Virus record (IMG/VR): IMGVR_UViG_3300034105_001128
Span: 1-64,000 of that record
Strand: one strand, 5' to 3'
Length of the DNA stretch: 64,000 bases
DNA from: a virus
The translations under genes were made by a program, and so were the position numbers. The notes under the pieces were generated by a model. That model ran no database searches and had not been told where the DNA came from. It saw only the letters and a program-made list of their open reading frames with translations. Below, in pieces: positions 23 to 21,293 of the stretch (positions are counted from its first letter, which is position 1; each line of letters opens with the position of its first letter).

Positions 23-229
23 ATGATCATGTTCTACAATGGGTTCAATCTATTGATTGACATCCTTCTGGTCATCATCACATACAAGGTAGCACGCTAT
101 GTACTGATAACAAGAATCGCTGATTACTTCTATGATGAGGGACAAGATGACACCCTCGACCTGATTGACTCAGGTAAATTGTACAAGCAAGAGTGTGATG
201 GCAAAATGCTATGGACATACTCAGAGTGA
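23..229 (+). CDS. small hypothetical membrane protein
   Basis: SD GAAAGG upstream; N-terminal hydrophobic segment. Confidence 0.6.
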   Translation: MIMFYNGFNLLIDILLVIITYKVARYVLITRIADYFYDEGQDDTLDLIDSGKLYKQECDGKMLWTYSE

Positions 230-483
230 GTGTCTATGATGGCACACAGTTGTGCGCTCAAGTTGATTCCGAGCTTTTCTTCCCTGAAGATCGGAAAGAA
301 TGGAAGTCAAACATAGCACAGGCTAAAACTATCTGTGCTCAATGCCCAATGTTCAAGGCTTGTGATGTCTATGCCAAATCATTCCCCGGACTCTATGGTG
401 TGTGGGCTGGTAAATGGTATGACGGAGCAGGCTTTGTATCTCAAGCCCCGTATGTAACAACTAACAGAAAGGTAGCAGCATAG
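211..483 (+). CDS. whiB: WhiB-family Fe-S transcription factor
   Basis: Cys...ELFFP...CxxC-x5-C and GVWAG turn motif. Confidence 0.9.
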   Translation: MDILRVSVYDGTQLCAQVDSELFFPEDRKEWKSNIAQAKTICAQCPMFKACDVYAKSFPGLYGVWAGKWYDGAGFVSQAPYVTTNRKVAA

Positions 484-641
484 TGGTACTAGATAATGGA
501 ACAACACTAGCCATAATGATTGCTTTACTGGGGTCAGTAACAGTCATGTGTCTATTCTGGAGAGAAAACATCAACCAACACAAACAAATCCGCGGCCTAC
601 AGGCAGCCTTACGTGACGAACGGAGAAAGAATGCGGGATAA
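483..641 (+). CDS. 52-aa single-TM protein (not in ORF track)
   Basis: GTG start overlapping whiB stop; MVLDNGTTLAIMIALLGSVTVMCLFW...; tiles with neighbours. Confidence 0.6.
   Translation: MVLDNGTTLAIMIALLGSVTVMCLFWRENINQHKQIRGLQAALRDERRKNAG
575..586 (+). promoter_or_regulatory. CCAACACAAACA motif copy
   Basis: exact 12-mer, one of 8 exact copies within 575-11249. Confidence 0.6.
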
Positions 642-777
642 AGATGCTCTTGCTAAGTTAAATGAAGTGAAAGCAGCGCAAGAAGAGTTACGTTCAATAA
701 TTGCTCAGTTACAAATAGATGTACACACAATCAAAGCACAACAATATCTACGTGATTGGAGTATCAATGGCAAATAA
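631..777 (+). CDS. 48-aa coiled-coil hypothetical protein (not in ORF track)
   Basis: SD GGAG upstream; MRDKDALAKLNEVKAAQEELRSII...; overlaps both neighbours. Confidence 0.55.
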   Translation: MRDKDALAKLNEVKAAQEELRSIIAQLQIDVHTIKAQQYLRDWSINGK

Positions 778-997
778 AGTTAAATCAGACGAAGAACTAA
801 GAGCAGCAGGTTACATGACACCTACTGAGTTTGTAGACAGGCTTGTGCCTGGACTCAAGCAATACCTCAAGCACAACTGGGGTGTTCACCCAGATGGCTT
901 GTATCATCCCGAAGATCTATTTTCCAACGCAGAGATCTATTTAGAAGTAGCCAGACATGTTGTTGGCGACTTCGGTGTTACACCACACAAAGAATAG
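767..997 (+). CDS. hypothetical protein
   Basis: ORF 719..997; start reassigned to ATG 767 after GGAG. Confidence 0.6.
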   Translation: MANKVKSDEELRAAGYMTPTEFVDRLVPGLKQYLKHNWGVHPDGLYHPEDLFSNAEIYLEVARHVVGDFGVTPHKE

Positions 998-1033
998 TCT
1001 TATGTGAGGGAGCCTAGTCATGCGGAACTAGGC

Positions 1034-1080
1034 GGGGTGGGGTTGAGAGTTTGAGGGAGCTCTCCCCCACCCTATTTTTC
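1034..1080 (+). terminator. putative intrinsic terminator
   Basis: GGGTGGGG...CCCCACCC stem with inner GAGAG/CTCTC, followed by TATTTTT. Confidence 0.6.
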
Positions 1081-1410
1081 TATACGATGCGATAGTAACG
1101 TAACGCGTTACTATCGGATTGTATAGACAATCCAAGGAACACTACTGGACCAATGAACAGGCGAGGAATGGAGGCTGCTAAGGCTCTGAACTAGGCATCC
1201 CTATGAGAATAGGTAACCCTACTGTAAGGCTGAACCCCCGGCCGGACCCTTAACACTCGATACAACTTCGTGGGTGTATCACTGTAATGGCTATGTACAG
1301 CGACCAAAAGAAATAGGTAGTGCCAACCAAAAGACACAGAGCATGTGGTCTATAAAACATGTACCAACACAAACACGCACCACAATACACACCCGGCTGG
1401 GTGTGTATCC
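1079..1410 (+). ncRNA. candidate structured ncRNA or long 5' leader
   Basis: about 21-bp hairpin 1079-1127, CCTAT-GAGA-ATAGG 1200-1213, GATACA/TGTATC, CTGTA/TACAG, 10-bp hairpin 1385-1408. Confidence 0.4.
1364..1375 (+). promoter_or_regulatory. CCAACACAAACA motif copy
   Basis: exact 12-mer, intergenic. Confidence 0.65.
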
Positions 1411-1432
1411 ACGTACAAAAGGAGGGCCAGCA

Positions 1433-1873
1433 ATGGCTACAACTAAAGTAATCGCAACAACTTGGGCTAAGAAAGATCTAGTCGCTAAGTTAAAAGCAAC
1501 ACTCAAGCGTATGGACGCAGAGATAGTTGAGTGGGATAAAAACTACGCAACTATAGATAAGCGTCAAGAGGCTTGGGATAAGAAAGCTGAAGCATGGGCT
1601 AAAAAGAACATGTCTAAAGCAATTGACTTCGACTTCAATGCTGGAGGATACAGAGGACCCTATGTCTCTGTGTTCTTTAACGAAGCAACGTTCGAAGCAG
1701 CAATGGGTAAGCGCCCTGATCAAGGCCGTAAACCTCAATATAAAGACACTAACTATAACAACAATGTTAGTGAGTACGAACAGGTGGAAAATGCTATCGC
1801 TCTAATCGAAGGTGCAACTGATACTGAATTCAAGATCACTTCGTCTTCAACATGGGCATCATTCATCCGCTAA
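1433..1873 (+). CDS. hypothetical protein
   Basis: strong SD AAGGAGG before ATG 1433 (ORF track start 1274 unlikely). Confidence 0.75.
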   Translation: MATTKVIATTWAKKDLVAKLKATLKRMDAEIVEWDKNYATIDKRQEAWDKKAEAWAKKNMSKAIDFDFNAGGYRGPYVSVFFNEATFEAAMGKRPDQGRKPQYKDTNYNNNVSEYEQVENAIALIEGATDTEFKITSSSTWASFIR

Positions 1874-1932
1874 ACAACTTAATAACGCCTAGCGCGGTTG
1901 GTTTCTATAGTTCTTCCTGAGGTAAAAGAACT

Positions 1933-1965
1933 CCTGTCCTGAGCATGACAAGGCTAAACTGCTCA
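1933..1965 (+). ncRNA. putative H-type pseudoknot in intergenic leader
   Basis: P1 CCTGTC/GACAAGG; loop TGAGCA pairs with downstream TGCTCA. Confidence 0.45.
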
Positions 1966-1989
1966 TTACTCATACCAGAAAGGATAGCA

Positions 1990-2277
1990 ATGGAACTAGA
2001 ACCATCAGACTTAGGCAAAGATGATGACCTAAGCCAGTTTAAAACTGTACCTGAACACAAGACCAACATACTTCCATTACGTTGGTTTGCTAACGCATGT
2101 AACCACATGTCTTCGCCTGTTCTATACAGGGCACTATGGCATGAAGACTCTGATGAATACTACTATGGAGAAATATCCAGAGTGGGTCGCATGTGGTGGA
2201 AGTTGTACAACTTAATAGACGCACCCTATCGTAAGTGGGGCACAAGTTATCGTATGATCTTTGACGATAATGACTGA
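1990..2277 (+). CDS. hypothetical protein
   Basis: SD AAAGGA before ATG 1990. Confidence 0.65.
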   Translation: MELEPSDLGKDDDLSQFKTVPEHKTNILPLRWFANACNHMSSPVLYRALWHEDSDEYYYGEISRVGRMWWKLYNLIDAPYRKWGTSYRMIFDDND

Positions 2278-2512
2278 GCTAGTAGGTAAATACGTACAGA
2301 CTCCAGACGGAGTTCAGTATGTATGGCAAGAACAAGAAGTACCTTCCCCAACGTTTGACAACACGACAAGTAAACTACTATTCTTAATAGAAGCAGTGCT
2401 ATTTCATGGCTGCACCCGCAAAGAAGCATTGATGCTATGGGATGATGGCATCGATACGCTGTATGACAGCGTCTCAACACAAACAAACCAAGCCGAAAGG
2501 ATGGACAAGTAA
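2270..2512 (+). CDS. hypothetical protein
   Basis: tiles between neighbours; start chosen at MTELVG. Confidence 0.5.
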   Translation: MTELVGKYVQTPDGVQYVWQEQEVPSPTFDNTTSKLLFLIEAVLFHGCTRKEALMLWDDGIDTLYDSVSTQTNQAERMDK

Positions 2513-2788
2513 ATGGCTACAAAATCAAAAGGTAATCGTAATGATAACCGACCAAATGGCAAGGCCGCCAAGAAGAATCCAGGCCCTGCTCAACCACCAA
2601 AGACTAACTTCGAACATATTAATGGACGAAGCCCTGCCAATGATGCCAAGCGTGAGGCTTGGAAGAAAGCAGGTGGTCGTTGGAATCACAAATCAATTCC
2701 ACATTGGAAGACTGGCAAAGTGTACCAACCATCAATCATCGCACCAGCATTTGATCCTGAGAAATTACAGGAACTATTAAATGCGTAA
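2513..2788 (+). CDS. basic hypothetical protein
   Basis: abuts previous stop; Lys/Asn/Pro-rich. Confidence 0.6.
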   Translation: MATKSKGNRNDNRPNGKAAKKNPGPAQPPKTNFEHINGRSPANDAKREAWKKAGGRWNHKSIPHWKTGKVYQPSIIAPAFDPEKLQELLNA

Positions 2789-3095
2789 GAAAAAAGTTAT
2801 CGCTGCTATTGAGCAGCAGATACTAGAAGAACATGCTGAACTACATGGCATTGAACAACAAAATGCCCGCGCATATTACAGTGGGATGATGGATGGCTTA
2901 GGCTTTGCGCTTAAGATGTTAAAGCCAACATCCTCTGTAATATCTCTCACAACTGTATGGTATACAGATGATGAGCCAACACAAACACTCGAACGGGACC
3001 GCGAACGTGTCATCGAGCTTCAATTTGTTGACATGGAGGACCCAGAGCCTGTAATCTGTTACGCAGGCTTATTTGAAACATCGGAGGCAGAATGA
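2781..3095 (+). CDS. hypothetical protein
   Basis: overlapping tiling with SD AGGA. Confidence 0.6.
   Translation: MRKKKVIAAIEQQILEEHAELHGIEQQNARAYYSGMMDGLGFALKMLKPTSSVISLTTVWYTDDEPTQTLERDRERVIELQFVDMEDPEPVICYAGLFETSEAE
2976..2987 (+). promoter_or_regulatory. CCAACACAAACA motif copy
   Basis: exact 12-mer inside CDS. Confidence 0.55.
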
Positions 3096-3829
3096 CATCC
3101 CGTATGTTCACATACGCTGAATGGGAAGCCTATTTAGCCAGTGGACGCAAAAAATACGAACGCACATTGTATGACCGTGAGTTACGTATACAACACGCCA
3201 ATAAATTCAAACGTGGCGGTGATATTCAAATAGTAATACCTTGGTTAAATCGTTTTCCACTTATTACTATTCATCCTGATGACACCATGACCTTAAATGG
3301 TGAGCAGGCAACCTCAATGTGGGGTCACCCATACAATCCATTAAAAGCACAAAGCACACGCTACACCTTGTGGAAATACTGCGGTATAGAAGTTGTTCAA
3401 CGCCAGTTCAAGTTTAGATTATTTGAACAAGACGCTGCATTGACTCCACCAAAAATACAAGGTTGTCGTACGTGTAAAAAAACTGGGCGTGTTGATGGGT
3501 GGTGTAATGGCAATACTTGTTGGGATGTAAATACAAATACAGGCATATGCCCTAAGCATCCTGATACAGCACTATCAGATGTGGAGAAACAACGAGGTAG
3601 ACACGCTATGTTGTGTGAACATAACGAGTTGTTAAGCCACAAAGTACCACGCGGATACGAATGCTACTCATGTAGTGGCACAGGCAAGCGTGACTATGGT
3701 AGCAAACGAGTTTCTTTACTTTGGGACGGTTCCCCAATCAAAGTAAAGGATAGAAAGATATACAAACAACCACTAACTGATCTAGAAAGGATCGTGGCTA
3801 GCTATGCTGGACCTACACCTACAGTATGA
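3092..3829 (+). CDS. hypothetical protein with DnaJ-like CxxCxxTG zinc-finger motifs
   Basis: CRTCKKTG and CYSCSGTG; SD GGAGG; ATGA overlap. Confidence 0.7.
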   Translation: MTSRMFTYAEWEAYLASGRKKYERTLYDRELRIQHANKFKRGGDIQIVIPWLNRFPLITIHPDDTMTLNGEQATSMWGHPYNPLKAQSTRYTLWKYCGIEVVQRQFKFRLFEQDAALTPPKIQGCRTCKKTGRVDGWCNGNTCWDVNTNTGICPKHPDTALSDVEKQRGRHAMLCEHNELLSHKVPRGYECYSCSGTGKRDYGSKRVSLLWDGSPIKVKDRKIYKQPLTDLERIVASYAGPTPTV

Positions 3830-4319
3830 TCCAAACATCTCGCTCCGTAATCATATGACTCATGGTTTACCAGACCATAAGATTACAGGCGATATGTTAG
3901 CGGGGGGTTTGATGCCCACCACACTCATCGAGATAACTGAAAAGTCAGAGACTTTTCGTGATGCTGTGATTCATCACATGCTCACCGATGGGAGAATCAA
4001 TCAACCACAACAACAGCAAGCAATTGAATTGTTTGCTGCTGCCGTGTCAACTTGTCCCGATGACAATGAAACAATGCTACGTATTTATAGTGAATACTTA
4101 GCTGCACTTTCATACGCATGGGGAGAGACCGAAGTTGCAAAACGTGCGGTCTTACGCAACAAACCAGAAAAGGCGGGTAGATTTTTATCCACCGTGGCTA
4201 CCGCTTTAGATAAGCAGATGGACCACGAGGGTTTTAATACCTTGCTACATAACACAACATCATCAGCACCACACAGGTGGGAAATGCTAGAGTCCCCACA
4301 ACTATATCCAACAGTCTAA
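3804..4319 (+). CDS. DUF4192-like helical protein
   Basis: FRDA...AALSYAWGETEVAK pattern resembles the DUF4192 C-terminus; similar to 9313..9795. Confidence 0.45.
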   Translation: MLDLHLQYDPNISLRNHMTHGLPDHKITGDMLAGGLMPTTLIEITEKSETFRDAVIHHMLTDGRINQPQQQQAIELFAAAVSTCPDDNETMLRIYSEYLAALSYAWGETEVAKRAVLRNKPEKAGRFLSTVATALDKQMDHEGFNTLLHNTTSSAPHRWEMLESPQLYPTV

Positions 4320-4331
4320 CCAACACAAACA
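4320..4331 (+). promoter_or_regulatory. CCAACACAAACA motif copy
   Basis: exact 12-mer between stop codon and next SD. Confidence 0.65.
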
Positions 4332-4341
4332 AAGGAACCAC

Positions 4342-4662
4342 ATGTCAAAAAGTTGGACAAACGAAGGGCCTGATACTGAATCTTGGTTAAACAGTATCAC
4401 TACCGAAAAAGAAACCGTAGCTGATTTACTCAGTTGCGGTAACTGTGGTCGCCGTATACAACCAAGTCAAAAAAGCTTGGATGTGTACAACACACGGTAC
4501 AAAAGCTACGAACACTATCACGAAAGCTACGTAGGTTGTTATGAATCTACGCGGCCCAGCGGTAAGGTTCGCCTTGCGCACCGCTATAAGCCCTGGATGC
4601 AAAACGTATTAAGTGACGTTTATACTCCAGAGCCTACACACTGGACTAACTTAGATCAGTAA
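4342..4662 (+). CDS. hypothetical protein with CxxC
   Basis: SD AAGGA; CGNC motif. Confidence 0.65.
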   Translation: MSKSWTNEGPDTESWLNSITTEKETVADLLSCGNCGRRIQPSQKSLDVYNTRYKSYEHYHESYVGCYESTRPSGKVRLAHRYKPWMQNVLSDVYTPEPTHWTNLDQ

Positions 4663-4667
4663 TAAAG

Positions 4668-4886
4668 CGGGATGACTGTTGCGTCAGAAAACTTTATTTC
4701 ACTGATAAGTTAGTCCCCTAGTCTGGTTGGCTAAGCCAACCTCAAGCATACTTAACAGGTCTATACCAGAATAATTTAGACGCTCACGCGCTAGTAGTAC
4801 GAAGTAACTAGATGTATGGGAGATGAGAAGACAACGTGACGACCAGTTCAGTCCCTGTATGCAACGGGGGTAAGCCAACCAGACTA
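4668..4886 (+). ncRNA. candidate structured ncRNA / conformational switch
   Basis: 14-bp long-range stem 4719-4732/4873-4886 enclosing several hairpins; no ORF. Confidence 0.45.
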
Positions 4887-4907
4887 CTTAAATAGATTGG
4901 AGAGCAC

Positions 4908-5147
4908 ATGTGTTATGAATGTGATGATGACGACTCAATGCCAGACGAAGAGTTTAGTATCAACATGATTCCTGAAGAGGAACGTGAAGAGTTCTTAGAC
5001 TATGCTGTTGAGAAGTTCCATAAAGTTATAGAAAAAGCAGTACAGAATGACATCCTGTTTAATCTAATAACAGAATGGCCTGAACATAAGCAGGCCATGT
5101 TTACTTTCGCCACCATTATGGAAGATAAGCTTCTGGGTGACGATTAA
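4908..5147 (+). CDS. acidic hypothetical protein
   Basis: SD GGAG; MCYECDDDD N-terminus. Confidence 0.65.
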   Translation: MCYECDDDDSMPDEEFSINMIPEEEREEFLDYAVEKFHKVIEKAVQNDILFNLITEWPEHKQAMFTFATIMEDKLLGDD

Positions 5148-5202
5148 TTTTCCTTACACAACGTAAGGGAACGATACCAATACCAGAGAAGGGGTATGAT
5201 AT

Positions 5203-6609
5203 ATGGATATCGCAATGTTCACTGAATCGTACGAACCAAACATGGGTAACAAGCGACGTCAAGTCCTTGTTGTTCCACATGATGGGGCTGTGCGTATCTA
5301 TTCTCGCTTGACTGATGGCACTAAAGGCCACAACAGCAAGTGGGAAGAGACTAACCTAGAAGATATCTCACAAGAGATATCAGACAAAGAAACATTGACA
5401 CGAACACCTGTTGGAGTGTATGTAACTCCAGCAGATAATCGTGCGATGGATTCAAAAGGTTATTCACCAGTGTTGGGTACCAAAGCATGCGACAAGCATG
5501 GTAGGGCAATGACAACAACAGATACCACACCAGTTGTAGATATCATCTGTGATTTCTACGAACAAGTCAATGTCGGAGACGACAGTCTGGAGAAATACGT
5601 GACGGATAACCGCTCAAGTACAGGCACTACAGTTCCTTTAGTAGTTGCTGTACCAACACAAACAATGGATGATCTAGTACCAGCACAATCGGCACCATCA
5701 TTCAATGTATCGTTAGCAACAGTTCCTCCAATGAAGTTGGCGGAACGTTATGTGCACCGTAAAGTATACGGTGTTGAAGACTTCAAAGCCTTTGACAAAG
5801 CACGATCTAACGGTATCAACGTTCTTATCTATGGCCCTACAGGTCCAGGTAAGACAACAGCTGTAGAAGCGTGGGCAGCAGCCCGCGGTCTACGTATGGC
5901 TACAGTATCAGGTAACGCATCTATGGAGTCTCGCCAGCTATTCGGTGGCTTCATTCCTGATGGCATCGGAGGTTATGGTTGGATCGATGGTCCAGTAACT
6001 GATGTTGTACGTAACGGTGGCGTCTTATTGCTCGATGAGATGAACTTCATCAGCCCTAAGATTTACACTACATTGTATCCGCTAACAGATGGTCGTCGAT
6101 GCATTACATTGCTCGATCACATGGGTGAAACAATCGTGGCACACAAAGACTTAACAATCTTTGCAACCATGAACCCAGACTACATCGGTACAACACCGCT
6201 TAACTTCGCTATGCGCAATCGTTTCGACATTCAATTGTCGTGGGATTACGATGACGCAGTAGAGGCTAAGCTAGTTTCATCTAAGGCTCTCTTGCTAGTA
6301 ACTAAGCAACTTCGTGCTGAAGCTGCTAAGGGTCAGTACGAGACACCAATCTCAACTAACATGCTCATCGAAGTTGAAGCGTTCATTAAGGATGCTGATC
6401 TTGGCTACGAGTTTGCGGTTGAGAACTTCATTGCTCACTTCAGTGCGGAGGAGCAAGCATCTGTTCGTCTAGTCTTCCAGACACACGAACACAACATCAA
6501 GACAGACTTCGGCATCGAAGTTCCAATAACAATGGAACAAGCTGCTACAGTAACTATTGATGAACAACTATCCCAATGGGTAGCAGCACGTCAACTACAA
6601 CCGAACTAA
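5203..6609 (+). CDS. MoxR-type AAA+ ATPase (CbbQ/NorQ/CobS-like)
   Basis: Walker A GPTGPGKT, Walker B LLLDE, sensor ATMNP, Arg finger AMRNRF. Confidence 0.9.
   Translation: MDIAMFTESYEPNMGNKRRQVLVVPHDGAVRIYSRLTDGTKGHNSKWEETNLEDISQEISDKETLTRTPVGVYVTPADNRAMDSKGYSPVLGTKACDKHGRAMTTTDTTPVVDIICDFYEQVNVGDDSLEKYVTDNRSSTGTTVPLVVAVPTQTMDDLVPAQSAPSFNVSLATVPPMKLAERYVHRKVYGVEDFKAFDKARSNGINVLIYGPTGPGKTTAVEAWAAARGLRMATVSGNASMESRQLFGGFIPDGIGGYGWIDGPVTDVVRNGGVLLLDEMNFISPKIYTTLYPLTDGRRCITLLDHMGETIVAHKDLTIFATMNPDYIGTTPLNFAMRNRFDIQLSWDYDDAVEAKLVSSKALLLVTKQLRAEAAKGQYETPISTNMLIEVEAFIKDADLGYEFAVENFIAHFSAEEQASVRLVFQTHEHNIKTDFGIEVPITMEQAATVTIDEQLSQWVAARQLQPN
5653..5664 (+). promoter_or_regulatory. CCAACACAAACA motif copy
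   Basis: exact 12-mer in the linker-coding part of the AAA gene. Confidence 0.55.
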
Positions 6610-6621
6610 GTTAGGAACCAT

Positions 6622-8496
6622 ATGTATAACGATGATTTATCATCCGAACCGTGGTACCAACAAGAACGTGATGAGGAATCTCAATTACGTTCTGTTAGGC
6701 TGAATGCTCTGTGCCGTGTGTACGAGCAAGCAGACCGTGTTCTAAGTGGTGACCCTGTGATTGTGAATGTTGTTACCGGAGGAAGCGCACCAGCGTGGTC
6801 CGATGGAGCATCTATCACATTCAATGCAGACGAGATCAATGACCTTGACTTGGAAGCATTGACACAGATCAACGGCCTGAACTATCACGAGTTGGCTCAC
6901 CATCTCTATACACCACGTCGTGGAACAACATTCATGAAGTGGGTTATGGAGAATCAATACTTAGAGGCTGCAAATATACTAGAGGATCAGCGTATCGAGA
7001 CTCTACTTACAGCACGCTATCCAAGTATCATTCCGTATCTAACAGCCACAGTTGCTAGGTGGCTAGGCAACACACCCGAGCATGCTATAGGTAACTATAT
7101 GCTGGTGCGTGGCCGTAGGTATCTTCCATTGGAAATCAGACAATCATTCAGAGATTTGTTTGCTTTCCCTGATTTACTACCAGCCATCGTAGATATTGTA
7201 GATCAGTATCGTACGCTGGCATTCCCACGTGACTATGAGAAAGCACAGAAACTCATCAAGCGGTTCAATGATGAGGTCTTAGGTAATCTTGACATGCCAC
7301 AACTACCACAAGGTATGAATGGCTGTACGTCACGTGATCCCATTACTAAAGGTCGTCCCGAACCTGGTAGAGCACAGGAGAAAGACGCAGCTAAAGGTTG
7401 CAACATGGGTACAGCTGAACCAATAGGTGGTGGTCGTAAGCCAAACCTTAAGCCCAACACAAACCCAACCGAAGGACAAAGCACGGCTGCGGTAAGTGCA
7501 CCGCAAACATCTAGTGAAGCACTTGACATGCGTGCTAGGAACCAGGAACAAAAACAACCTGGTAACTTATCAGCAGGCTCAGGTCATCACGAAAGTGTTG
7601 GCGGCATACCAGACAACGTCAAGGAAATGCTTGAGGATACCATCCAGACAGTGTTAGAACGTAAAGACGTTCAACAGGATGTTAAGACGAAGCAGAAAGT
7701 AATTGTCGGTGGTGATGGTAAGCATGATGACACAATCAAGTCAGGTAAGTTCGATATGACATCTGTTCCTAATGAATCAGTGTTGTTATATCGTAAATTT
7801 GCCCGTGAACTTGAGCGTCTTCGTGATGAATGCGAACCCGCATGGCATCGTGAGGAAGCTAGTGGTCGCCTAAACATGCAGCGTGTGTTTAGAGGCTGCG
7901 AGATTGATGAGGCCTTTGACCGTTGGGATGAAGGCAATGATGGTGCCGATGTAGAAGCGGTAATCATGATTGATCGTTCTGGCAGTATGGCTAGTGGTCA
8001 GAATGATCGCAGAGCATCTGAAGCATGTTGGACAATCAAGCGTGCACTTGAGCAAATTGGTGCGCCAGTCACAGTCTATGCCTTTGATGATAAGGCTGAG
8101 GTTGCGTACAAGCGTACAGAGCTAGCTCACCGTACACAATACAAGTTCATCTACGGCAATGGTGGTACTAATCCATATACCACCCTACTTGCTGCAGAGC
8201 AACTATTCATATCGTCACGACGCAAAAACAAAATGCTATTCATAGTTACTGACGGTGCGTTTGACGCATCCAAGAACGATGAAGTCATTGAGCGTATTGC
8301 TAAGCGTGGCGTACTCACAGCCATGACACTAATCATGGCTAATGATGATGCTCAGTACTACGAAGATCGTGGTATGACCGAGAAAGAATTCAGACATGGT
8401 GCTGAGATCTTTGGTCGCATCAACAATGCACGAGACCTATTGCCATTTGCCAAGGCAGTAGTAATGGGGGCAATCAAAAAGCGTGGCGGCCGTTAA
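6622..8496 (+). CDS. VWA-domain partner of MoxR (CobT/NorD-like) with N-terminal HExxH domain
   Basis: MIDAS DRSGSM, GGT, VTDG; HELAH and LEDQRIE near N-terminus. Confidence 0.88.
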   Translation: MYNDDLSSEPWYQQERDEESQLRSVRLNALCRVYEQADRVLSGDPVIVNVVTGGSAPAWSDGASITFNADEINDLDLEALTQINGLNYHELAHHLYTPRRGTTFMKWVMENQYLEAANILEDQRIETLLTARYPSIIPYLTATVARWLGNTPEHAIGNYMLVRGRRYLPLEIRQSFRDLFAFPDLLPAIVDIVDQYRTLAFPRDYEKAQKLIKRFNDEVLGNLDMPQLPQGMNGCTSRDPITKGRPEPGRAQEKDAAKGCNMGTAEPIGGGRKPNLKPNTNPTEGQSTAAVSAPQTSSEALDMRARNQEQKQPGNLSAGSGHHESVGGIPDNVKEMLEDTIQTVLERKDVQQDVKTKQKVIVGGDGKHDDTIKSGKFDMTSVPNESVLLYRKFARELERLRDECEPAWHREEASGRLNMQRVFRGCEIDEAFDRWDEGNDGADVEAVIMIDRSGSMASGQNDRRASEACWTIKRALEQIGAPVTVYAFDDKAEVAYKRTELAHRTQYKFIYGNGGTNPYTTLLAAEQLFISSRRKNKMLFIVTDGAFDASKNDEVIERIAKRGVLTAMTLIMANDDAQYYEDRGMTEKEFRHGAEIFGRINNARDLLPFAKAVVMGAIKKRGGR

Positions 8497-8497
8497 T

Positions 8498-8509
8498 CCA
8501 ACACAAACA
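8498..8509 (+). promoter_or_regulatory. CCAACACAAACA motif copy
   Basis: exact 12-mer between stop codon and next SD. Confidence 0.65.
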
Positions 8510-8520
8510 AGGGAGCAAAC

Positions 8521-8712
8521 ATGTACACAATATGGGATAGCCTAAACGAGGAGAACATCGAAATCTTTAATGATTACGACTCTGCTCAAATGTTCTTGTT
8601 ACACATCTCTGATGAGATACCTGATGGTGGTGCAAACCTAACCATTGAGCCTATCTCTACAGCACAGGAGTGGGCACAGAATAACTGCATCGTACTATCG
8701 GCGTTAGTATGA
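8521..8712 (+). CDS. small acidic hypothetical protein
   Basis: SD GGGAG. Confidence 0.6.
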   Translation: MYTIWDSLNEENIEIFNDYDSAQMFLLHISDEIPDGGANLTIEPISTAQEWAQNNCIVLSALV

Positions 8713-8861
8713 GTTTACGAGAAGATCGTCCTGACATATGGATGAGCGAAATGCTTAAACAACGTGAGGAAGAACGATACTCAGCAAACAAAGAAATAGT
8801 TAGGTCTTTACTAATCAAATATGAGGCTGAAGACCTAGTACCAATGCTATTGGAGGACTAA
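8709..8861 (+). CDS. 50-aa hypothetical protein (not in ORF track)
   Basis: ATGA overlap upstream, TAATG overlap downstream. Confidence 0.55.
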   Translation: MSLREDRPDIWMSEMLKQREEERYSANKEIVRSLLIKYEAEDLVPMLLED

Positions 8862-9316
8862 TGGTTAATACATTCTTACCTTGGCCAGATATAACACGTA
8901 CAGCTAAATCCTTAGACAATAAGAGACTCGGCAAGCAACGCGTAGAAGCATTGCAGATTCTGAGGGCTAACTTGGGTCTAACTAGTGGATGGCGGAATCA
9001 CCCCGCAGCTGTGATGTGGCGCGGTCACGAAGGATATCTATACATGTACACGAATGCTATGTGCATGGAGTGGAGAAAGCGTGGCTACGAAGACAATGTA
9101 CAAGCACGTCTGCAAGAAATCTATGCGGAGCATGACCTACAAGGTTGGGACCCACCTTGGTGGTGGGGCAATGATGAGATCCATAAATCACATCGTTCTA
9201 ACCTAAAGCGTAAAGATCCGGTTTGGTACCGGTTTCGTGTACGTGGTGATCTTCCATACAAATGGCCTACACCAGACAAATTGTTTCGTGTAGTAATCAA
9301 AAAGGAGAAGAAATGA
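8861..9316 (+). CDS. pyrimidine-dimer DNA glycosylase-like protein (MSMEG_6728/DenV-like)
   Basis: TFLP...LDNKRLGKQRVEALQI...HPAAVMWRG...SHRSNL signature. Confidence 0.8.
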   Translation: MVNTFLPWPDITRTAKSLDNKRLGKQRVEALQILRANLGLTSGWRNHPAAVMWRGHEGYLYMYTNAMCMEWRKRGYEDNVQARLQEIYAEHDLQGWDPPWWWGNDEIHKSHRSNLKRKDPVWYRFRVRGDLPYKWPTPDKLFRVVIKKEKK

Positions 9317-9795
9317 TAGTAACGCGTAAAGAAGCAGTTGAACTGATCTCAGGCATGCTCAACAATGACATCAACTTGGAAGGCGAAGAGCTTGAAAAAG
9401 TTATCTTTGCAGTCAATGAAGACATTCAAGTACGCGATTGGATGATGGGCCTACCAATCAAGTGGTCATTGGAAGAAAGCATCAAATTTATGCAATACAT
9501 GGCTGTGCACGCAACGGCGCAAGACTCAGTGCCGTTCGTTACGGTGCAGGCCATTTTCTATTATGAATTGGGTGAGGTAGATAAGGCAACCCAATGCCTT
9601 AATTACTCAATACATATGGACAGTGAGTACTCATTGGCTCTATTAGTTAAGCGGGTAATTGATGCTGGCTGGCCTCAAGGCTCATTTAAACCAATGCGAG
9701 ATTCTGTTCATCCAAAAATTGTTGCAGAATGCTTTAGTGAAGAAGGCCAGCAACCAATTCAAAAAGGAGACAAATCATGGCAACATACACAGTAA
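9313..9795 (+). CDS. DUF4192-like protein
   Basis: VRD...YELG...YSLALLV...AGWP pattern. Confidence 0.6.
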   Translation: MIVTRKEAVELISGMLNNDINLEGEELEKVIFAVNEDIQVRDWMMGLPIKWSLEESIKFMQYMAVHATAQDSVPFVTVQAIFYYELGEVDKATQCLNYSIHMDSEYSLALLVKRVIDAGWPQGSFKPMRDSVHPKIVAECFSEEGQQPIQKGDKSWQHTQ

Positions 9796-9971
9796 CAATC
9801 CATGATCACATAATCTATGACTATGTGATTGAGGCAGACAGCCGGCAGGAAGCTGAGGCACGAGCTGAAGAAAGCATCATGAATGAGGAGTCTCATCTAT
9901 GGCGCCAAGATATGGAAGCGGGTTGGACTGAAATTGGGGAAATCTATAACGATATGGATGAGGAAGTTTGA
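9777..9971 (+). CDS. small acidic hypothetical protein
   Basis: SD AAGGAG; YxVxI...IEADSxxEAxxxA pattern typical of small phage proteins. Confidence 0.7.
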   Translation: MATYTVTIHDHIIYDYVIEADSRQEAEARAEESIMNEESHLWRQDMEAGWTEIGEIYNDMDEEV

Positions 9972-9972
9972 C

Positions 9973-9984
9973 CCAACACAAACA
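9973..9984 (+). promoter_or_regulatory. CCAACACAAACA motif copy
   Basis: exact 12-mer just upstream of a TAGAAT -10-like hexamer. Confidence 0.65.
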
Positions 9985-10016
9985 ATCGGCTAGAATAGTA
10001 AAGGAGAGGTATATGT

Positions 10017-10217
10017 ATGGCTAATGATGATCTGTATGACCTAAGAATAGTACTTAGGGTAAAAGTTAAAAAATGGCGAATAGATGACCAGTCTAATGAA
10101 GCTAACTGGGAGTGGTCAACAAACGTATACGACAGAAACCTACAACAATGGATTAACATAGTTAATCTTAAGAGGCCCGGAGAAGACTCATACATCGAGT
10201 CTATTACGGAAATGTAA
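10017..10217 (+). CDS. hypothetical protein
   Basis: SD AAGGAG. Confidence 0.6.
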   Translation: MANDDLYDLRIVLRVKVKKWRIDDQSNEANWEWSTNVYDRNLQQWINIVNLKRPGEDSYIESITEM

Positions 10218-10244
10218 AAATCCCCCGGAGCGCAATCCGGGGGA
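10216..10244. terminator. GC hairpin terminator (U-tract on - strand)
   Basis: AAAAA-TCCCCCGGA-gcgcaa-TCCGGGGGA. Confidence 0.55.
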
Positions 10245-10315
10245 CTTGAGGGTGTGAACTCTGTTCTATGAGAGCTAACACCCTAATCATACACTAGAAG
10301 GGAGAATATTGTGAA

Positions 10316-10552
10316 ATGCAATTTGCAAATCTCAATATAAAAACTAAGGAGATACGAAAATTAGTGGATGCTTTGGAGGATGCGGGCCTAAACGTCAGCA
10401 TAACCAACGGTAAGCACCATGTAAAGGTCGTAAATCCCCAAACAAAACAGACAGTGTTCTTTGGGCCTCAATCATTGGGGGACCGTAGAGCATCCAAGAA
10501 TATACTAAGAGACCTTAAAAAAGTAGGGTTTCATGGCAATATCAACTCATAA
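10316..10552 (+). CDS. HicA-like dsRBD-fold toxin/RNase
   Basis: LxxAG...GKHH strand pattern, C-terminal helix KNILRDLKKVG. Confidence 0.6.
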   Translation: MQFANLNIKTKEIRKLVDALEDAGLNVSITNGKHHVKVVNPQTKQTVFFGPQSLGDRRASKNILRDLKKVGFHGNINS

Positions 10553-10563
10553 GGAGCAAATAA

Positions 10564-10851
10564 ATGGCTAAAAAAGTAAGTAGTCTATTCAGTGCAAGTA
10601 TCGTTAAGAACCAAACAAAAGGTGGGGCATGGTTAGCAACTATTGTGCTAACGGATGAAGGCATAGATATACCATACGACTCATACCAAGCAGCCTGGGC
10701 TAATGCATCGGCTGCAAAACGATGGGTCAAAGAAGTGCTGTTAGCAACCACAACTCGTAAGTCTGTAAAAATGTTGCCTGGATCTGAACTAGACGCCAAG
10801 CAAAAGCCTGTTGTACTTTTAGGGGCGGTAACATTTAAGCGGGAGTCATGA
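10564..10851 (+). CDS. hypothetical protein
   Basis: SD AAGGAG. Confidence 0.7.
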   Translation: MAKKVSSLFSASIVKNQTKGGAWLATIVLTDEGIDIPYDSYQAAWANASAAKRWVKEVLLATTTRKSVKMLPGSELDAKQKPVVLLGAVTFKRES

Positions 10852-10982
10852 TGGATATGGAAACAGTAGGTCCTTTTAAAACAGTCAATGACTTAATGAA
10901 AGAACTTAATGAAAACAGTCCTGGTGGCTGTGATTGCGGAAACTGCAAGTGCAAAGATGAACCTACAGAAGGAGAAAGTTAA
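10848..10982 (+). CDS. 44-aa Cys-cluster peptide (not in ORF track)
   Basis: ATGA and TAATG overlaps; GGCDCGNCKC. Confidence 0.55.
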   Translation: MMDMETVGPFKTVNDLMKELNENSPGGCDCGNCKCKDEPTEGES

Positions 10983-11194
10983 TGCCTAAATACACAGTAA
11001 TGTTTTCTTCTGAAAGAAATGGTGAACTTAGTTTCACAGCAGAAGATGATCTCGATGCTGAAGACATATACGAAAACTTAATGACGGGACTTATATATTC
11101 AGATGATCTGGATGATGTCAGTGAGCGTGTAAATGATTCTGATTTACAGTTCTATGACCTTAGATCCCCGACAGGTAAGCTGCTAGCAGACTGA
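10982..11194 (+). CDS. highly acidic small protein
   Basis: SD AAGGAG; D/E-rich. Confidence 0.7.
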   Translation: MPKYTVMFSSERNGELSFTAEDDLDAEDIYENLMTGLIYSDDLDDVSERVNDSDLQFYDLRSPTGKLLAD

Positions 11195-11205
11195 CCGCAA
11201 GCAAA

Positions 11206-11235
11206 TGGCCCCGGCTCTTAATTGAGTCGGGGCCA
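11206..11235. terminator. terminator at convergence of early (+) and nrdJ (-) transcription
   Basis: TGGCCCCGGCTC-ttaatt-GAGTCGGGGCCA. Confidence 0.7.
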
Positions 11236-11237
11236 AA

Positions 11238-11249
11238 TGTTTGTGTTGG
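11238..11249 (-). promoter_or_regulatory. CCAACACAAACA motif copy (inverted)
   Basis: TGTTTGTGTTGG on + strand. Confidence 0.6.
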
Positions 11250-18212: not shown

Positions 18213-18392
18213 TTATTTACCTTTGCGTAGATTGTCTGCGTTCTTCCTAAGTTCTTTGTTATCACGAATGCCGGTAGTACCTGTGGTTTCATCGTCATCT
18301 TGAATGCCGCTAGCCGCTATATTTTTTCTAATTTCTTCAGCAGAAACTACTCCTGTACGGCGAAATGAAGCATTTCTTCCATCTTTATTCAT
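18213..18392 (-). CDS. 59-aa charged protein (not in ORF track)
   Basis: MNKDGRNASFRRTG...RKGK; fills the gap exactly. Confidence 0.55.
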   Translation of the reverse strand: MNKDGRNASFRRTGVVSAEEIRKNIAASGIQDDDETTGTTGIRDNKELRKNADNLRKGK

Positions 18393-18726
18393 TGATGCCC
18401 TTTTTTCTTTCCATAAAATCTGCCATAGAAACTACGTTCTCTGGTAAATGCTCCGTAACACCTGTCTCAAAATGTTCAGGTCGTGTCTGTGTTTGAGGCG
18501 ATTGAACTATGTTCGCGTCTTCATTTGAGGCTGGATCTAAACCTAAATAGGTAGATACTTTGCCTTCCCAAGAACCAAGTTTAGCTCTAGGTTCTTTGGG
18601 AGCAGCCAAATCTTTTTTAATAGGATCTATATAGGTTTGTTTAACGTGATCTACTAATTTAGTTTTTGCGTCAGCAATATTCTTTCTTTGCTGCATATAA
18701 CGTTTAGCAGACCCTTTTTTACCCAT
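18385..18726 (-). CDS. basic hypothetical protein
   Basis: start reassigned to MGKKGSAKRY just after the upstream stop. Confidence 0.6.
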   Translation of the reverse strand: MGKKGSAKRYMQQRKNIADAKTKLVDHVKQTYIDPIKKDLAAPKEPRAKLGSWEGKVSTYLGLDPASNEDANIVQSPQTQTRPEHFETGVTEHLPENVVSMADFMERKKGINE

Positions 18727-18727
18727 C

Positions 18728-19009
18728 TTAGTAGCTTGCGCCCATTTGATTGTTCTCAATGTCTGCAACAGGCATTGAAGAACGTGGCTTTGAGCTTGCG
18801 CCCATTTTGCCTGGCTCTACTTTGTTAGGTGTCTCTTGGTCAATAAACCCATAGTTTTGGAATGGGTGTAGTCCACGACGGTTAGCTAAAGTTATATCGT
18901 CACCAGTGCCTGAAGCAACAGTTGTGTTAGGGCGTACCTTGCGGTACTTGCCATCTGTTGATCCTTCTGATAAGCTTGAATTAAGTGAACCTGATTCGTT
19001 AACTGACAT
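18728..19009 (-). CDS. low-complexity hypothetical protein
   Basis: TAATG overlap; SD GGAG. Confidence 0.65.
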   Translation of the reverse strand: MSVNESGSLNSSLSEGSTDGKYRKVRPNTTVASGTGDDITLANRRGLHPFQNYGFIDQETPNKVEPGKMGASSKPRSSMPVADIENNQMGASY

Positions 19010-19344
19010 TATTTTTTCTCCCAGGTGGTTGCTGAACGAATGCCGTTATTGGCACCAGGCTTGGAGTTTGCATCTAGTTTCTTTCCTGCGTTACGTAAAG
19101 CGTCTTTTCGAGGTAAGCGTTCGCCAGATGCAGCACGACCTGCGTCACCGTATTGGGCCTCATATTTAACATCGGTACGGTCGAGCTCATTTTGGTACTT
19201 CTCTTCCGTAGTAGATTGTGGACCTGCATCACGAAGTGTGCCTGACTTTGCCATTGCGGTAATTTGCGCAACAGTATCTGATCCTCCTCCGGCACGTGAA
19301 GCATTTACTTGCTTACGGTCACGAACATAACTTAATAGTCCCAT
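19009..19344 (-). CDS. hypothetical protein
   Basis: TAATG overlaps on both sides. Confidence 0.65.
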   Translation of the reverse strand: MGLLSYVRDRKQVNASRAGGGSDTVAQITAMAKSGTLRDAGPQSTTEEKYQNELDRTDVKYEAQYGDAGRAASGERLPRKDALRNAGKKLDANSKPGANNGIRSATTWEKK

Positions 19345-19493
19345 TATTTCTTACCAGCTTTCTTTTTAGGTCCTGTCTTATTTGAAGATTTTTTGAGCAT
19401 TTCTTCTCTAGCCTTTTGTTCTGCAGTCTTTACCTTTAAAGGCCTTACTTTGTAGGCAGCTTTACCGCCATCTGGGTTTTTAAGTGTACTCAT
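19344..19493 (-). CDS. 49-aa Lys-rich peptide (not in ORF track)
   Basis: MSTLKNPDGGKAAYKVRPLKVK...KKKAGKK; SD GGGAG. Confidence 0.55.
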   Translation of the reverse strand: MSTLKNPDGGKAAYKVRPLKVKTAEQKAREEMLKKSSNKTGPKKKAGKK

Positions 19494-19524
19494 ATATAAA
19501 TTATCTCCCTATTTCCTTAGAATG

Positions 19525-19686
19525 TCAAGCCATACCGCGTTTAGCGTGGTATGTATATTTAGCGTTTCTACAGTCTGGGCATAGCCCATTATGTGAATAG
19601 ATAGCCTCAAGTGGGGTTAAGAAATGCCCACACTTTGGGCAAAGGGTGCTACCTTCGTATACAGTCTCAGTATTAATATCTTCCAT
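19525..19686 (-). CDS. 53-aa zinc-ribbon protein (not in ORF track)
   Basis: CPKC...CPDC; TAATG overlap. Confidence 0.6.
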   Translation of the reverse strand: MEDINTETVYEGSTLCPKCGHFLTPLEAIYSHNGLCPDCRNAKYTYHAKRGMA

Positions 19687-21291: not shown

Positions 21292-21293
21292 AG

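Follow-up and report, generated by a model that had tools for sequence, protein, structure and literature searches.

The closest described counterparts of the locus analysed here are the stoperator/operator systems of cluster A and CA actinobacteriophages, including the sites of L5 gp71 and of the TipsytheTRex repressor (PMC9283540, PMC6550527, PMC5559632, PMC13313380). Like the 12-base word reported below, these sites are short (12-14 bp), asymmetric, sharp-edged and dispersed in one orientation, are squeezed into short gaps or gene ends with one copy at a promoter, and belong to phages of actinobacterial hosts. In both, a constant part is combined with a lineage-specific part, which in cluster A take the form of a constant half and a specificity half (PMC5559632). 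An initial annotation of this DNA had named stoperators among several analogues of the word, and by word length, edges, orientation and dispersal they are indeed the closest known system.

The DNA is a window of 64,000 nucleotides, i.e. the whole stretch that was analysed, from a viral record of 76,241 bp; the source is an uncultured ~100-kb lake myovirus of actinobacteria that is probably virulent. Here, a sharp-edged word of 12-13 nt is present in ten block copies, one of which (9973) overlaps a predicted promoter, as do its orthologues in nine relatives. In contrast to cluster A, however, the array is regularly spaced and held within one block (about 11 kb of ~100 kb, or about 11% of the genome) instead of running genome-wide, about two thirds of the copies lie within called ORFs (some of them in protein linkers), and a sister group of phages also has the word as palindrome arms and in inverted pairs, so that a single orientation is not maintained there. 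Neither a tyrosine or serine integrase nor a resolvase was found in five complete relatives, and no repressor family, including the cluster-A type, was matched among the proteins scanned with Pfam or PHROGs. Since these phages have no integrase, the known role of stoperators, immunity, does not apply to them.

The word and the block it tiles

The word, CCAACACAAACA, occurs on the plus strand between 575 and 9984 in seven exact and two one-mismatch copies (T at position 1 in one, C at position 12 in the other), and once in inverted orientation. The copies and the features discussed with them are as follows.

211-483, plus strand: WhiB-like protein within the block (Pfam E 9e-13)
575-586, plus strand: word copy 1, exact; orthologous copy in the relative L009
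1364-1375, plus strand: word copy 2, exact; a small hairpin lies upstream, and its stem co-varies among relatives
2474-2485, plus strand: word copy 3, variant TCAACACAAACA, which recurs at orthologous sites in relatives
2976-2987, plus strand: word copy 4, exact, within a 104-aa ORF
4320-4331, plus strand: word copy 5, exact, directly 3' of a stop codon and ending 10 nt upstream of the next ATG
5203-8496, plus strand: gene pair encoding AAA_5 (CobS/MoxR-like) and VWA (CobT-like) proteins
5653-5664, plus strand: word copy 6, exact, in a variable linker of the AAA_5 ATPase gene, where it reads PTQT
7454-7465, plus strand: word copy 7, a variant with C as its last base; lies in the indel-rich VWA linker (nt +832)
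8498-8509, plus strand: word copy 8, exact, in the gap from the VWA stop codon to the SD that follows
9968-9996, plus strand: predicted sigma-A-type promoter TTGACC-17-TAGAAT around copy 9
9973-9984, plus strand: word copy 9, exact, occupying the promoter spacer, an operator-like position
10017-11194, plus strand: last sub-operon, behind the copy-9 promoter; it also encodes a 66-aa unknown protein and a 70-aa acidic protein
10316-10552, plus strand: 78-aa HicA-like fold candidate in the last sub-operon
10564-10851, plus strand: 95-aa basic protein, unknown, in the last sub-operon
11206-11235: bidirectional intrinsic terminator hairpin, common to the plus-strand block and the convergent RNR operon
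11238-11249, minus strand: the single inverted word copy, exact, downstream of the RNR stop, with the terminator hairpin 3 nt further on
28819-29061, minus strand: SpoVS homologue
36135-36602, minus strand: 155-aa protein with a weak MerR-type HTH, second candidate reader
37072-37230, minus strand: omega-like ribbon-helix-helix (RHH) protein of 52 aa, best candidate reader

All word coordinates in the initial annotation proved correct, and the gaps of 502 to 1801 bp, about one copy per 1,100 bases, agree with the spacing of 0.5-1.8 kb that it gave. As it had also reported, the window holds no exact copies beyond the seven on the plus strand and the one on the minus strand; the full record adds one, at 72557 on the minus strand and sense to the local gene. 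One-mismatch copies outside the block lie, within the window, at 43155 and 51942 (plus) and at 58851 and 62761 (minus). With up to one mismatch, 14 matches were counted versus 0.46 +/- 0.66 expected from 100 dinucleotide shuffles. Markov models of orders 0-4 fitted to the A/C-rich plus strand of the block predict 0.002-0.02 copies, so that background does not explain the count; orders 6-7 are uninformative because the copies themselves contaminate the models. The word is the sole dispersed repeat of at least 9 nt in the genome. In a logo of 113 distinct plus-strand copies from 16 genomes, information is confined to the 12 positions and a weak A at position 13, with none in the flanks.

Fifteen relatives (54-99% identity in the VWA protein) carry 3-12 sense copies each and one inverted copy. 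All 131 block copies of this main group are in sense orientation; 42 are intergenic, many of them 0-2 nt after a stop codon, and 89 (68%) lie inside called ORFs, the AAA_5 and VWA linkers included, a split that rests on crude calls for small ORFs. Sense copies are found in all three frames as well as in stop-to-SD gaps, and several stand 10-32 nt upstream of a start codon. The AAA_5 and VWA copies lie in indel-rich linkers with every synonymous site fixed: those of copy 6 are all invariant in 13 of the 15 aligned relatives, and copy 7 shifts position and frame from one relative to another. Selection acts on the word at the nucleotide level. Spacing is regular, the coefficient of variation of the gaps being 0.22-0.34 versus 0.86 when copies are placed at random (five genomes, each with P <= 5e-4), and gaps below 500 bp number 0 of 131. 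Such tiling would fit a coverage function rather than a gene-feature function.

Among 401 actinobacterial genomes (the class of Actinotalea), the word was present in 33, nearly always as a single copy, and two outliers and one conserved locus could be traced to longer repeats or coding sequence. None of the 401 is enriched for the word, in a sample that may not include the true host. A host word of the Chi or KOPS type, which the initial annotation had considered, is thus unlikely, and the reader of the word does not appear to be a host chromosome system. Its broader proposal of a phage-lineage-specific, nucleotide-level signal confined to one block is borne out by the relatives, the background models and the host chromosomes.

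Promoter and terminator contexts

Copy 9 fills the spacer of a predicted promoter, and TTGAC(C), a 17-18 bp spacer filled by the word, and TAnAcT are kept in nine relatives (10 of 16 genomes), with varying flanking bases. Read from sequence, this would be the classical position for repression. The word could itself be a promoter for a phage-specific polymerase or sigma factor, comparable to the 8-bp T4 late or T7-type promoters, which are likewise short, oriented, repeated and partly intragenic, and its copies shortly before start codons would agree with this. However, the logo has no -10 or -35 partner at a fixed distance, one copy lies inside an ordinary sigma-A-type promoter spacer, and in the relative L024 a separate 45-nt promoter-like repeat is distinct from the word of that phage. 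In addition, no RNA polymerase or sigma gene was seen among the proteins scanned, and leaders made from the copies that lie 10-12 nt upstream of an ATG would lack an SD. We therefore hold a promoter function to be very improbable.

The inverted copy stands beside the shared terminator, in the 3' UTR of the RNR operon and 3-7 nt before the hairpin, in 13 of 13 distinct relatives, and its sequence co-varies with the array variant. In the sister group, a terminator hairpin and an inverted word occur between genes that are all on one strand, indicating that the inverted copy belongs to the terminator and not to the neighbouring operon. Plus-strand copies also precede intrinsic terminators by 3-7 nt in two relatives (L016 and L013). 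The initial annotation had stated that the word follows transcription and flips with it: the sense orientation within the block stands, but the statement is too general, as the array is missing from about 65 kb of genes on the minus strand and from a second plus-strand island (22874-26912). Its label of "early region" for the block is an assumption; in the RNA run, contigs were flat and DNA-like only.

These positions bear on whether the word is a loading site for an elongation or antitermination factor (ops/RfaH-, boxA/NusB-E- or nut-like), bound on the non-template strand or the nascent RNA and reloaded about every kilobase. The ops (RfaH) and boxA (NusB/NusE) signals are, like the word, linear, 12 nt long and strictly sense, and act on elongating polymerase; the copies placed just before terminators agree with such a role, and intragenic copies would be harmless. 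Yet the known systems have 1-2 sites per operon read by conserved host factors, whereas the word has about ten copies, changes with lineage and has one copy upstream of a start site. A polymerase reading through the shared terminator would transcribe the opposite operon in antisense, the inverted copies that the sister group has between co-oriented genes do not fit, and no NusG/RfaH-like gene was found among the proteins scanned. Taken together, we consider this explanation quite unlikely.

The word in other phage groups

Among lineages, C2, A4 and A8-C11 of the word are constant and positions 1, 3 and 5-7 change, a variation that looks stoperator-like; a relative with 31% identity uses CCAAGGCAAACA. 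In the sister group, the palindromes that the word flanks are intergenic, with its copies in inverted pairs between co-oriented genes. Paired with its complement, the word makes up the base of hairpins that are perfect over 25 bp and have unique inner stems (dG -70 kcal/mol, z -12.8), located directly after terminators. In three cultured Gordonia phages, the counterpart of the block is tiled by GCTCCGGGTG, a G+C-rich and partly self-complementary word that is also found in the same VWA linker (+823/+826). Almost all of their genome runs in one direction, yet the array occupies just 11-17 kb, starting in a large divergent intergenic region beside the genes for primase and DnaB; the tiled block also contains a MerR-like gene. 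The AAA_5/VWA pair are the only block genes common to every group of phages with a tiled word.

The most conserved small protein of the block is the HicA-like candidate, with an invariant His35 and a Pfam match (E 0.003) that is below the cut-off. Its model has the order alpha-beta-beta-beta-alpha (pLDDT 75) and is best matched by HicA3 in Foldseek (E 0.14, TM 0.50/0.55); the 95-aa protein downstream, in the hicB position, has no clear fold match.

Hairpins and a toxin-like fold raise the question of an RNA-level element, in which the word would be bound, cleaved or paired with its complement in the mRNA, thereby processing, stabilising or destroying block transcripts, with T7 early RNase III sites and T4 RegB as analogues. 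The 131 sense copies, an A/C-only word that is intrinsically unpaired, sister-group hairpins of RNase III substrate size, the constant place of the inverted copy in the RNR 3' UTR and the HicA-like fold are all in its favour. T7 early RNase III sites and T4 PeSL cassettes are oriented repeats between early genes, and the terminator plus long perfect hairpin of the sister group is similar to them, but in the main group the word lacks a hairpin and some of its copies are intragenic. Furthermore, the promoter-embedded copy is absent from the transcript of that promoter, cleavage at the intragenic copies would destroy the AAA_5 and VWA messages, sense copies show no association with local structure (p=0.97), and the base composition and self-complementarity of the Gordonia word leave no common RNA property. 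It is also unlikely that a 78-aa domain would read 12 nt, and the evidence for HicA is weak (three sub-threshold matches). Of the alternatives, this is the one we weigh most, though we still regard it as unlikely.

A polar DNA signal for a machine of the phage's own, be it a Ter-like barrier, a Chi-like attenuator, a KOPS-like guide or a priming or nick site, we consider rather unlikely. Chi, KOPS and Ter sites are, like the word, oriented, convergent on one point and repeated for coverage, and the arrangement of many sites facing a single opposed one matches that of a fork trap, of Chi sites flanking a break and of KOPS flanking dif. The regular 1.1-kb spacing matches the scale of Okazaki fragments and the logic of coverage, phages of the T5, phiKMV and tf types are known to carry motifs for strand-specific nicking, the phage encodes its own primase, DnaB, PolA, helicase and Cas4-like nuclease, and the start and confinement of the Gordonia array would agree with such a signal. 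But Chi and KOPS (5-8 nt) and Ter (23 nt) are abundant on host chromosomes, and as no sampled host genome uses the word, reading by host RecBCD/AdnAB or FtsK is out. Twelve nucleotides are long for a Chi or primase site, the sister group's inverted pairs would act in both directions, whether as barriers or as signals, general replication needs would not be restricted to about a ninth of the genome, and the promoter-spacer copy is left unexplained.

Finally, the sister-group units, with constant inverted outer arms, a variable inner palindrome and one unit per small gene, resemble attC, and in L009 a 287-bp insertion ends 10 nt after a copy; the word might thus be the recombination core of exchangeable cassettes (integron attC- or PeSL-like) or a mobile-element relic. 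Against this, 29 mosaic breakpoints are not enriched near the word (median distance 180 versus 235 nt, none within 25 nt, p=0.2), the five complete genomes lack integrases and resolvases, and fixed copies inside conserved genes are not cassette borders, making the idea highly improbable.

A candidate reader and a proposed repressor-site reading

The RHH protein, one of the readers suggested in the initial annotation, is now the best candidate, on the strength of its distribution, its conservation and its match to omega repressor. It is present in 9 of 9 word-bearing genomes tested, including the sister group. The one complete genome with a different word lacks it at the syntenic site, and it was undetectable in that genome. 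PKTPTRTIRV, which forms the N-terminal arm and beta-strand of the protein, is invariant, although the helices vary and identity of the AAA_5 and VWA proteins has dropped to 30-44%. The Pfam matches to Omega_Repress (E 0.055) and RHH_1 (E 0.079) are both below the cut-off; with a profile of nine orthologues, the best PDB matches are omega repressor chains (E 0.01-0.02), with AvtR and NikA weaker. The MerR-like protein is also present in the variant-word genome; it and the WhiB-like protein within the block were likewise among the candidates of the initial annotation. A link between the SpoVS homologue, named earlier as well, and the word was looked for but not found.

The omega repressor recognises units of 7 bp, needs at least two of them (14 bp), which may be direct or inverted, and acts as a repressor of promoters (PMC4627068). 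This protein of pSM19035, the nearest solved relative of the RHH candidate, overlaps promoters and represses several operons. At three promoters, 6-10 heptads follow one another without gaps to form its sites, whereas the word occurs as single 12-mers over 11 kb with no heptad periodicity evident.

Our preferred reading, to which we assign a probability of roughly one in three (0.35), is that the copies are duplex DNA sites for a small phage repressor, the candidate being the RHH protein, and serve as an operator and as stoperator-like roadblocks. We infer here that the word is read as DNA, that the RHH protein reads it and that repression is the effect. Sharp edges at 12-13 nt without flank information are expected for a protein site. 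The Gordonia phages, with the same architecture but quite a different word, fit drifting protein-DNA specificity better than a particular RNA property, and binding in either orientation, as by omega, would accommodate the inverted pairs of the sister group.

Several observations run against the repressor reading. The link between the RHH protein and the word consists of one negative genome and of conservation that any autoregulating RHH protein might show; the family assignment is weak, and the RHH gene itself has no copy of the word nearby. If a repressor governed the whole block, copies would be expected at its head, yet the divergent promoter region there has none and the first 1-3 kb are copy-free. 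The share of copies within called ORFs is unlike that of cluster A stoperators, an omega-like protein does not need the strict one-strand polarity of the main group, and the 25-bp hairpins of the sister group, which a plain duplex site does not explain, point to folded RNA or single-stranded DNA.

Under the repressor reading, the factor would shut down or gate the block of about 11 kb as one unit. The copy in the promoter spacer of the last sub-operon would be a classical operator, and the others would be placed every 1.1 kb or so where the sequence tolerates them: after stops, before SDs, just after starts and in protein linkers. Sites in one orientation would act as elongation roadblocks, limiting transcripts to about 1-2 kb when the factor is present, and the inverted copy would keep transcription from the convergent RNR operon out of the block. 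In relatives, the word persists even in variable parts of protein genes, which makes it a real control signal, and one of a kind not yet described.

The word array and its gene block

All copies of the oriented word CCAACACAAACA listed in the initial annotation, about ten on the plus strand and one on the minus strand, were recovered in a search allowing up to one mismatch. In total, 14 matches at ≤1 mismatch were observed in the window versus 0.46 in dinucleotide shuffles. The count is not explained by a high-order Markov model either: orders 0-4, trained on the plus strand of the A/C-rich block, expect 0.002-0.02 copies, and the expectation rises at orders 6-7 only because the model has by then learned the word copies themselves. 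Among words of at least 9 nt, this is the sole dispersed repeat in the genome. The full record is 76,241 bp long and rated 78% complete, the window being its first 64 kb. Scattered copies were also seen off the block, comprising four further one-mismatch matches in the window (43155 and 51942, plus strand; 58851 and 62761, minus strand), a copy at record position 68532 (-), and one more exact copy at 72557 (-) in the last 12 kb. Off-block one-mismatch copies are about 10 times as numerous as expected by chance. Scattered copies on the minus strand run in the sense direction of local genes. The scattered copies are not kept in complete relatives.

The genes of the tiled block, which we assume to be an "early" region, run rightward from 1 to about 11.2 kb and include many small ORFs of unknown kind. 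Rfam and tRNA scans of the block gave no matches. Its main features are:

211-483, plus strand: WhiB protein, from family search
5203-6609, plus strand: AAA_5/CobS-like ATPase
6622-8496, plus strand: VWA/CobT-like protein
within the block, plus strand: pyrimidine-dimer glycosylase
11206-11235: hairpin dividing the block from a long leftward gene run

The VWA/CobT-like protein gives a weak peptidase PHROG match; its conserved N-terminal domain contains an HExxH-type motif (YHELAHH) and shares 35% identity with the Gordonia phage homologue. A 245-aa protein (3092-3829) contains several CxxCxGxG motifs, as in DnaJ-type zinc fingers, and matches no family in Pfam or PHROG. The leftward run starts with a class II ribonucleotide reductase (RNR) and a TGT/DpdA-like protein, continues with replication genes (PolA, DnaB, DnaG-type primase, helicase) and leads on to myovirus genes for sheath, baseplate and tape measure. 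The closest cellular relatives of the RNR are actinobacterial which, together with the presence of WhiB, suggests that the host is an actinobacterium. No tyrosine or serine recombinase was found in five complete relatives of about 95-105 kb; these phages are therefore probably virulent.

Conservation, spacing and selection

A search with the VWA protein gathered 16 contigs. The word proved to be conserved in related phages, all 15 contigs at 54-99% VWA identity bearing the array, with 3-12 sense copies in the equivalent block and exactly one inverted copy just past it. In five complete or near-complete genomes (88.7-104.9 kb; one rated 91% complete), the array is restricted to about 11-16 kb. 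A logo computed from 113 distinct sense copies carries 1.4-2.0 bits at each of the 12 positions and 0.7 bits for A at position 13, while the flanks carry no information.

Spacing is regular. The shortest of 131 gaps measures 502 bp, and most are 570-1800 bp long; in five genomes taken one by one, the coefficient of variation is 0.22-0.34, where random placement gives 0.86 (P ≤ 5e-4 in each). The word keeps to no particular gene feature: copies are found 0-2 nt after stop codons, 10-12 or about 30 nt ahead of start codons, two codons past a start codon, and in protein linkers. It thus seems to be placed wherever it is tolerated while keeping the tiling. The first 1-3 kb of the block contain no copy, and a search for degenerate copies there found none.

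Conservation at synonymous sites, a check proposed in the initial annotation, was borne out by codon alignments: in nearly all relatives, the copies within the AAA_5 and VWA genes agree at all 12 nt, with no synonymous position excepted. The stretches hosting these copies are indel-rich, poorly conserved linkers, and in the VWA linker of three relatives (L013, L016 and L020) the word is shifted by a few codons or to another frame. Since synonymous positions are fixed within variable linkers and the word can shift place and frame, selection acts on a DNA or RNA word which the protein merely tolerates. Three variants, TCAACACAAACA, CCAACATAAACA and CCGACACAAACA, were seen in the main group, CCAACATAAACA being the sole form in L019 and CCGACACAAACA dominant in L020. 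In both of these relatives the inverted copy also carries the array variant, arguing for a common reader that co-evolves with the word. The 99%-identical relative L009 contains a 287-bp insertion (L009:4945-5231 versus window 1966-1976) with its own copy, CCAACATAAACA, 10 nt from its right edge.

Two local contexts recur. Firstly, the last sense copy (9973) occupies the spacer of a predicted sigma-A-type promoter, TTGACC-17-TAGAAT, heading a four-gene sub-operon (10017-11194); the arrangement TTGAC(C)/word/TAnAcT was found in 9 relatives (10/16 genomes), with varying adjoining bases. Secondly, the inverted copy lies past the RNR stop codon, 3-7 nt before the shared terminator hairpin, in 13/13 distinct relatives. 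The same word-then-terminator order is seen for a few sense copies (L016 6493 and L013 3412, in two main-group relatives); otherwise, sense copies show no association with downstream hairpins or structure. A small hairpin with loop ..TATAAA.. (1335-1363) lies just upstream of word copy 2; its orthologues in two relatives (L010 about 4745, L014 about 4795) belong to a set in which the stem shows compensatory substitutions (CATGT/ACATG, CACGG/CCGTG, GTGT/ACAC).

Other words and forms in distant relatives

Scanning IMG/VR for the word followed by 2-8 nt and GCCCC yielded at least 119 contigs with the word beside a terminator. Among the matches listed, many are further main-group members and about 15 form a sister group of 47% G+C, with identities of 35-44% for AAA_5, 30-43% for VWA and 81% for RNR. 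In this group, copies are arranged as inverted pairs between genes of one orientation, and the AAA_5 and VWA genes contain none. Each unit consists of a terminator hairpin, the inverted word TGTTTGTGTTGG, a unique perfect palindrome and the sense word CCAACACAAACA, and folds into a 25-bp stem (dG -70 kcal/mol, z -12.8). The inner stem is different in each unit and perfectly paired in all. Intergenic units in three sister-group contigs are located at:

L066: 400-470, 1572-1668 and 2860-2975
L051: 6794-10860
L055: 3905-7750

Several units then carry an oriented TGTGGATAA, the reverse complement of the DnaA-box consensus TTATCCACA. This element lies 5-14 nt after many of the sense copies and was counted in L051 (7 plus, 1 minus) and in two further sister-group contigs, L094 (8 minus) and L059 (4 minus); it is absent from the window and its close relatives.

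L024, a relative with a 31% identical VWA protein (93.6-kb genome, 98% complete), contains no copy of CCAACACAAACA. Instead, it has five sense copies of CCAAGGCAAACA plus one further copy, and a degenerate CCAAGAAACA ahead of the convergent terminator. A protein scan for more genomes with CCAAGGCAAACA returned L024 alone, and a 14-mer scan gave single chance matches. The L024 block also contains four copies (2068, 5814, 8329 and 11835) of a promoter-like repeat of about 45 nt (TTTACCTGATAG ... GGGGCTAAAGG), one of them directly upstream of a word copy. Because L024 keeps this promoter-like repeat apart from its word, the word is very probably not a promoter, a reading to which we give next to no weight.

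DNA search found no cultured close relatives. By AAA_5 protein (45% identity), the nearest cultured phages are lytic myoviruses of Gordonia and Brevibacterium; GMA6 is listed among phages without temperate features (PMC5559632). The Gordonia phages Chidiebere, ScarletRaider and GMA6 have 6-7 exact copies each of a different word, GCTCCGGGTG, all on the sense strand, with no opposite-strand copy and none elsewhere in the genome. The arrays span only 11-17 kb of 83-93-kb genomes, over an equivalent AAA+/VWA block:

Chidiebere (L037): 18852-30783
GMA6 (L038): 18331-34922
ScarletRaider: 60076-71465 of the record

They begin beside a large divergent intergenic region adjoining the primase and DnaB genes, and include a VWA-linker copy at nt +823/+826, versus +832 for the word in the window. 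Since these phages tile the equivalent block with another word, the architecture is older than any single word. No exact GCTCCGGGTG copy was found in DalanDe or Cantare. In Cantare, a Brevibacterium phage, CACCAACA (16 plus, 1 minus) was not counted as an array because it is an 8-mer and its copies are scattered throughout the 40 kb examined.

Candidate readers and possible functions

Judging from 401 actinobacterial genomes sampled across the class, the reader of the word is probably not a host chromosome system. None of these genomes is enriched in the word; 33/401 have a copy, nearly always single. The sample includes two unpublished genomes (G270 and G014) with one copy each, on which no conclusion depends. 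One 5.4-Mb genome with seven copies is an apparent exception only: its copies lie within a repeat longer than 100 nt, in DNA of 70% G+C. A context kept in three small genomes resembled a strong promoter and is in fact the site where convergent crp-like and metallo-beta-lactamase genes overlap at their 3' ends, without rRNA nearby. In a metatranscriptome run containing half of the block's words, depth is flat (about 11) and contigs cross the terminator; these contigs therefore behave as DNA of an L009-like strain. Two other runs gave short conserved pieces. A full-text literature search with either strand of the word and of the Gordonia word found no phage paper.

Family searches (PHROGs, Pfam) of phage proteins identified few regulators: of the candidates named in the initial annotation, the WhiB and SpoVS proteins were confirmed, while the MerR-like protein (36135-36602) has a MerR-type HTH match but a weak one; 10 further mid-size proteins yielded none. 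The sub-operon at 10017-11194 encodes the block's most conserved small protein (78 aa, 61-83% identity), for which HicA-like evidence is weak but threefold. Together with a 95-aa protein it may form a HicA-like/partner pair (10316-10851), which is conserved across the phage group and would be transcribed from the promoter with the word in its spacer. The basic 95-aa protein gave a confident model with no fold match (Foldseek E ≥ 0.05; VIA Z ≤ 5.7), and neither its profile nor that of a 66-aa protein had a meaningful PDB match.

The strongest lead, judged from sequence, is the candidate ribbon-helix-helix (RHH) protein of 52 aa (37072-37230, minus strand). The best matches of its orthologue profile are omega repressor chains (E 0.01), and its Pfam matches, Omega_Repress and RHH_1, are both sub-threshold. 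It is present in 9/9 word-bearing genomes tested, three of them from the sister group. Residues 5-14 (arm and beta-strand) are invariant whereas the helices vary, other proteins falling to 30-45% identity. The arm and beta-strand are the DNA-reading part of RHH proteins. In L024 the syntenic slot, between the helicase and the next gene, lacks this gene, which was also undetectable elsewhere in the complete genome. As only L024 was recovered with CCAAGGCAAACA, the link between RHH absence and variant word rests on one genome, and the correlation across genomes is suggestive of a word reader. Omega binds 7-bp units, direct or inverted, with a minimum of two units (14 bp), and represses promoters (PMC4627068).

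Our preferred reading, at a probability of roughly 0.35, is that the word is a DNA-level repressor site, acting as operator and as stoperator-like roadblocks. Such a site would account for edges as sharp as those of a protein site, for a word that drifts from lineage to lineage, for the copy in the promoter spacer, for the tiling and for the RHH correlation; it would fail to account for the perfect hairpins seen in the sister group, the absence of copies from the head of the block and the strict polarity in the main group. A site read at the RNA level is unlikely, a polar signal for a phage DNA machine more unlikely again, and a loading site for an elongation factor the most doubtful of these three. 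Cassette recombination at the word is highly improbable, the idea of a recombination hot spot being unsupported.

Slightly less probable than a repressor site is a reading without stoperator kinship: an undescribed, distance-measuring "region code" of virulent actinobacterial myoviruses, read by a tracking machine. Throughout the block with the AAA+ and VWA genes, a short word particular to each lineage (CCAACACAAACA, CCAAGGCAAACA, GCTCCGGGTG) would recur at intervals of about a kilobase, its placement being forced even into protein linkers. The reader, e.g. a clamp, translocase or filament, would track DNA or RNA and need reloading or nucleation at fixed intervals, and the palindromic units of the sister group would be a folded form of the word.

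To our knowledge, region-wide cis-codes are rare in phage genomes, the stoperators of temperate cluster A phages being the only well-studied case. Here, a comparable code is found among uncultured freshwater actinophages that form a large and abundant group and are probably virulent. It stands out by its strict tiling at kilobase intervals, by the copies forced into protein linkers, and by words that are specific to each lineage. As cultured Gordonia phages carry a differently spelled array in an equivalent block, the question is directly testable at the bench. If the reader were found, it would open a new way into the temporal control of actinophage genes or reveal a new DNA- or RNA-tracking process, and would supply actinobacterial genetics with a compact, portable module for silencing or insulation.
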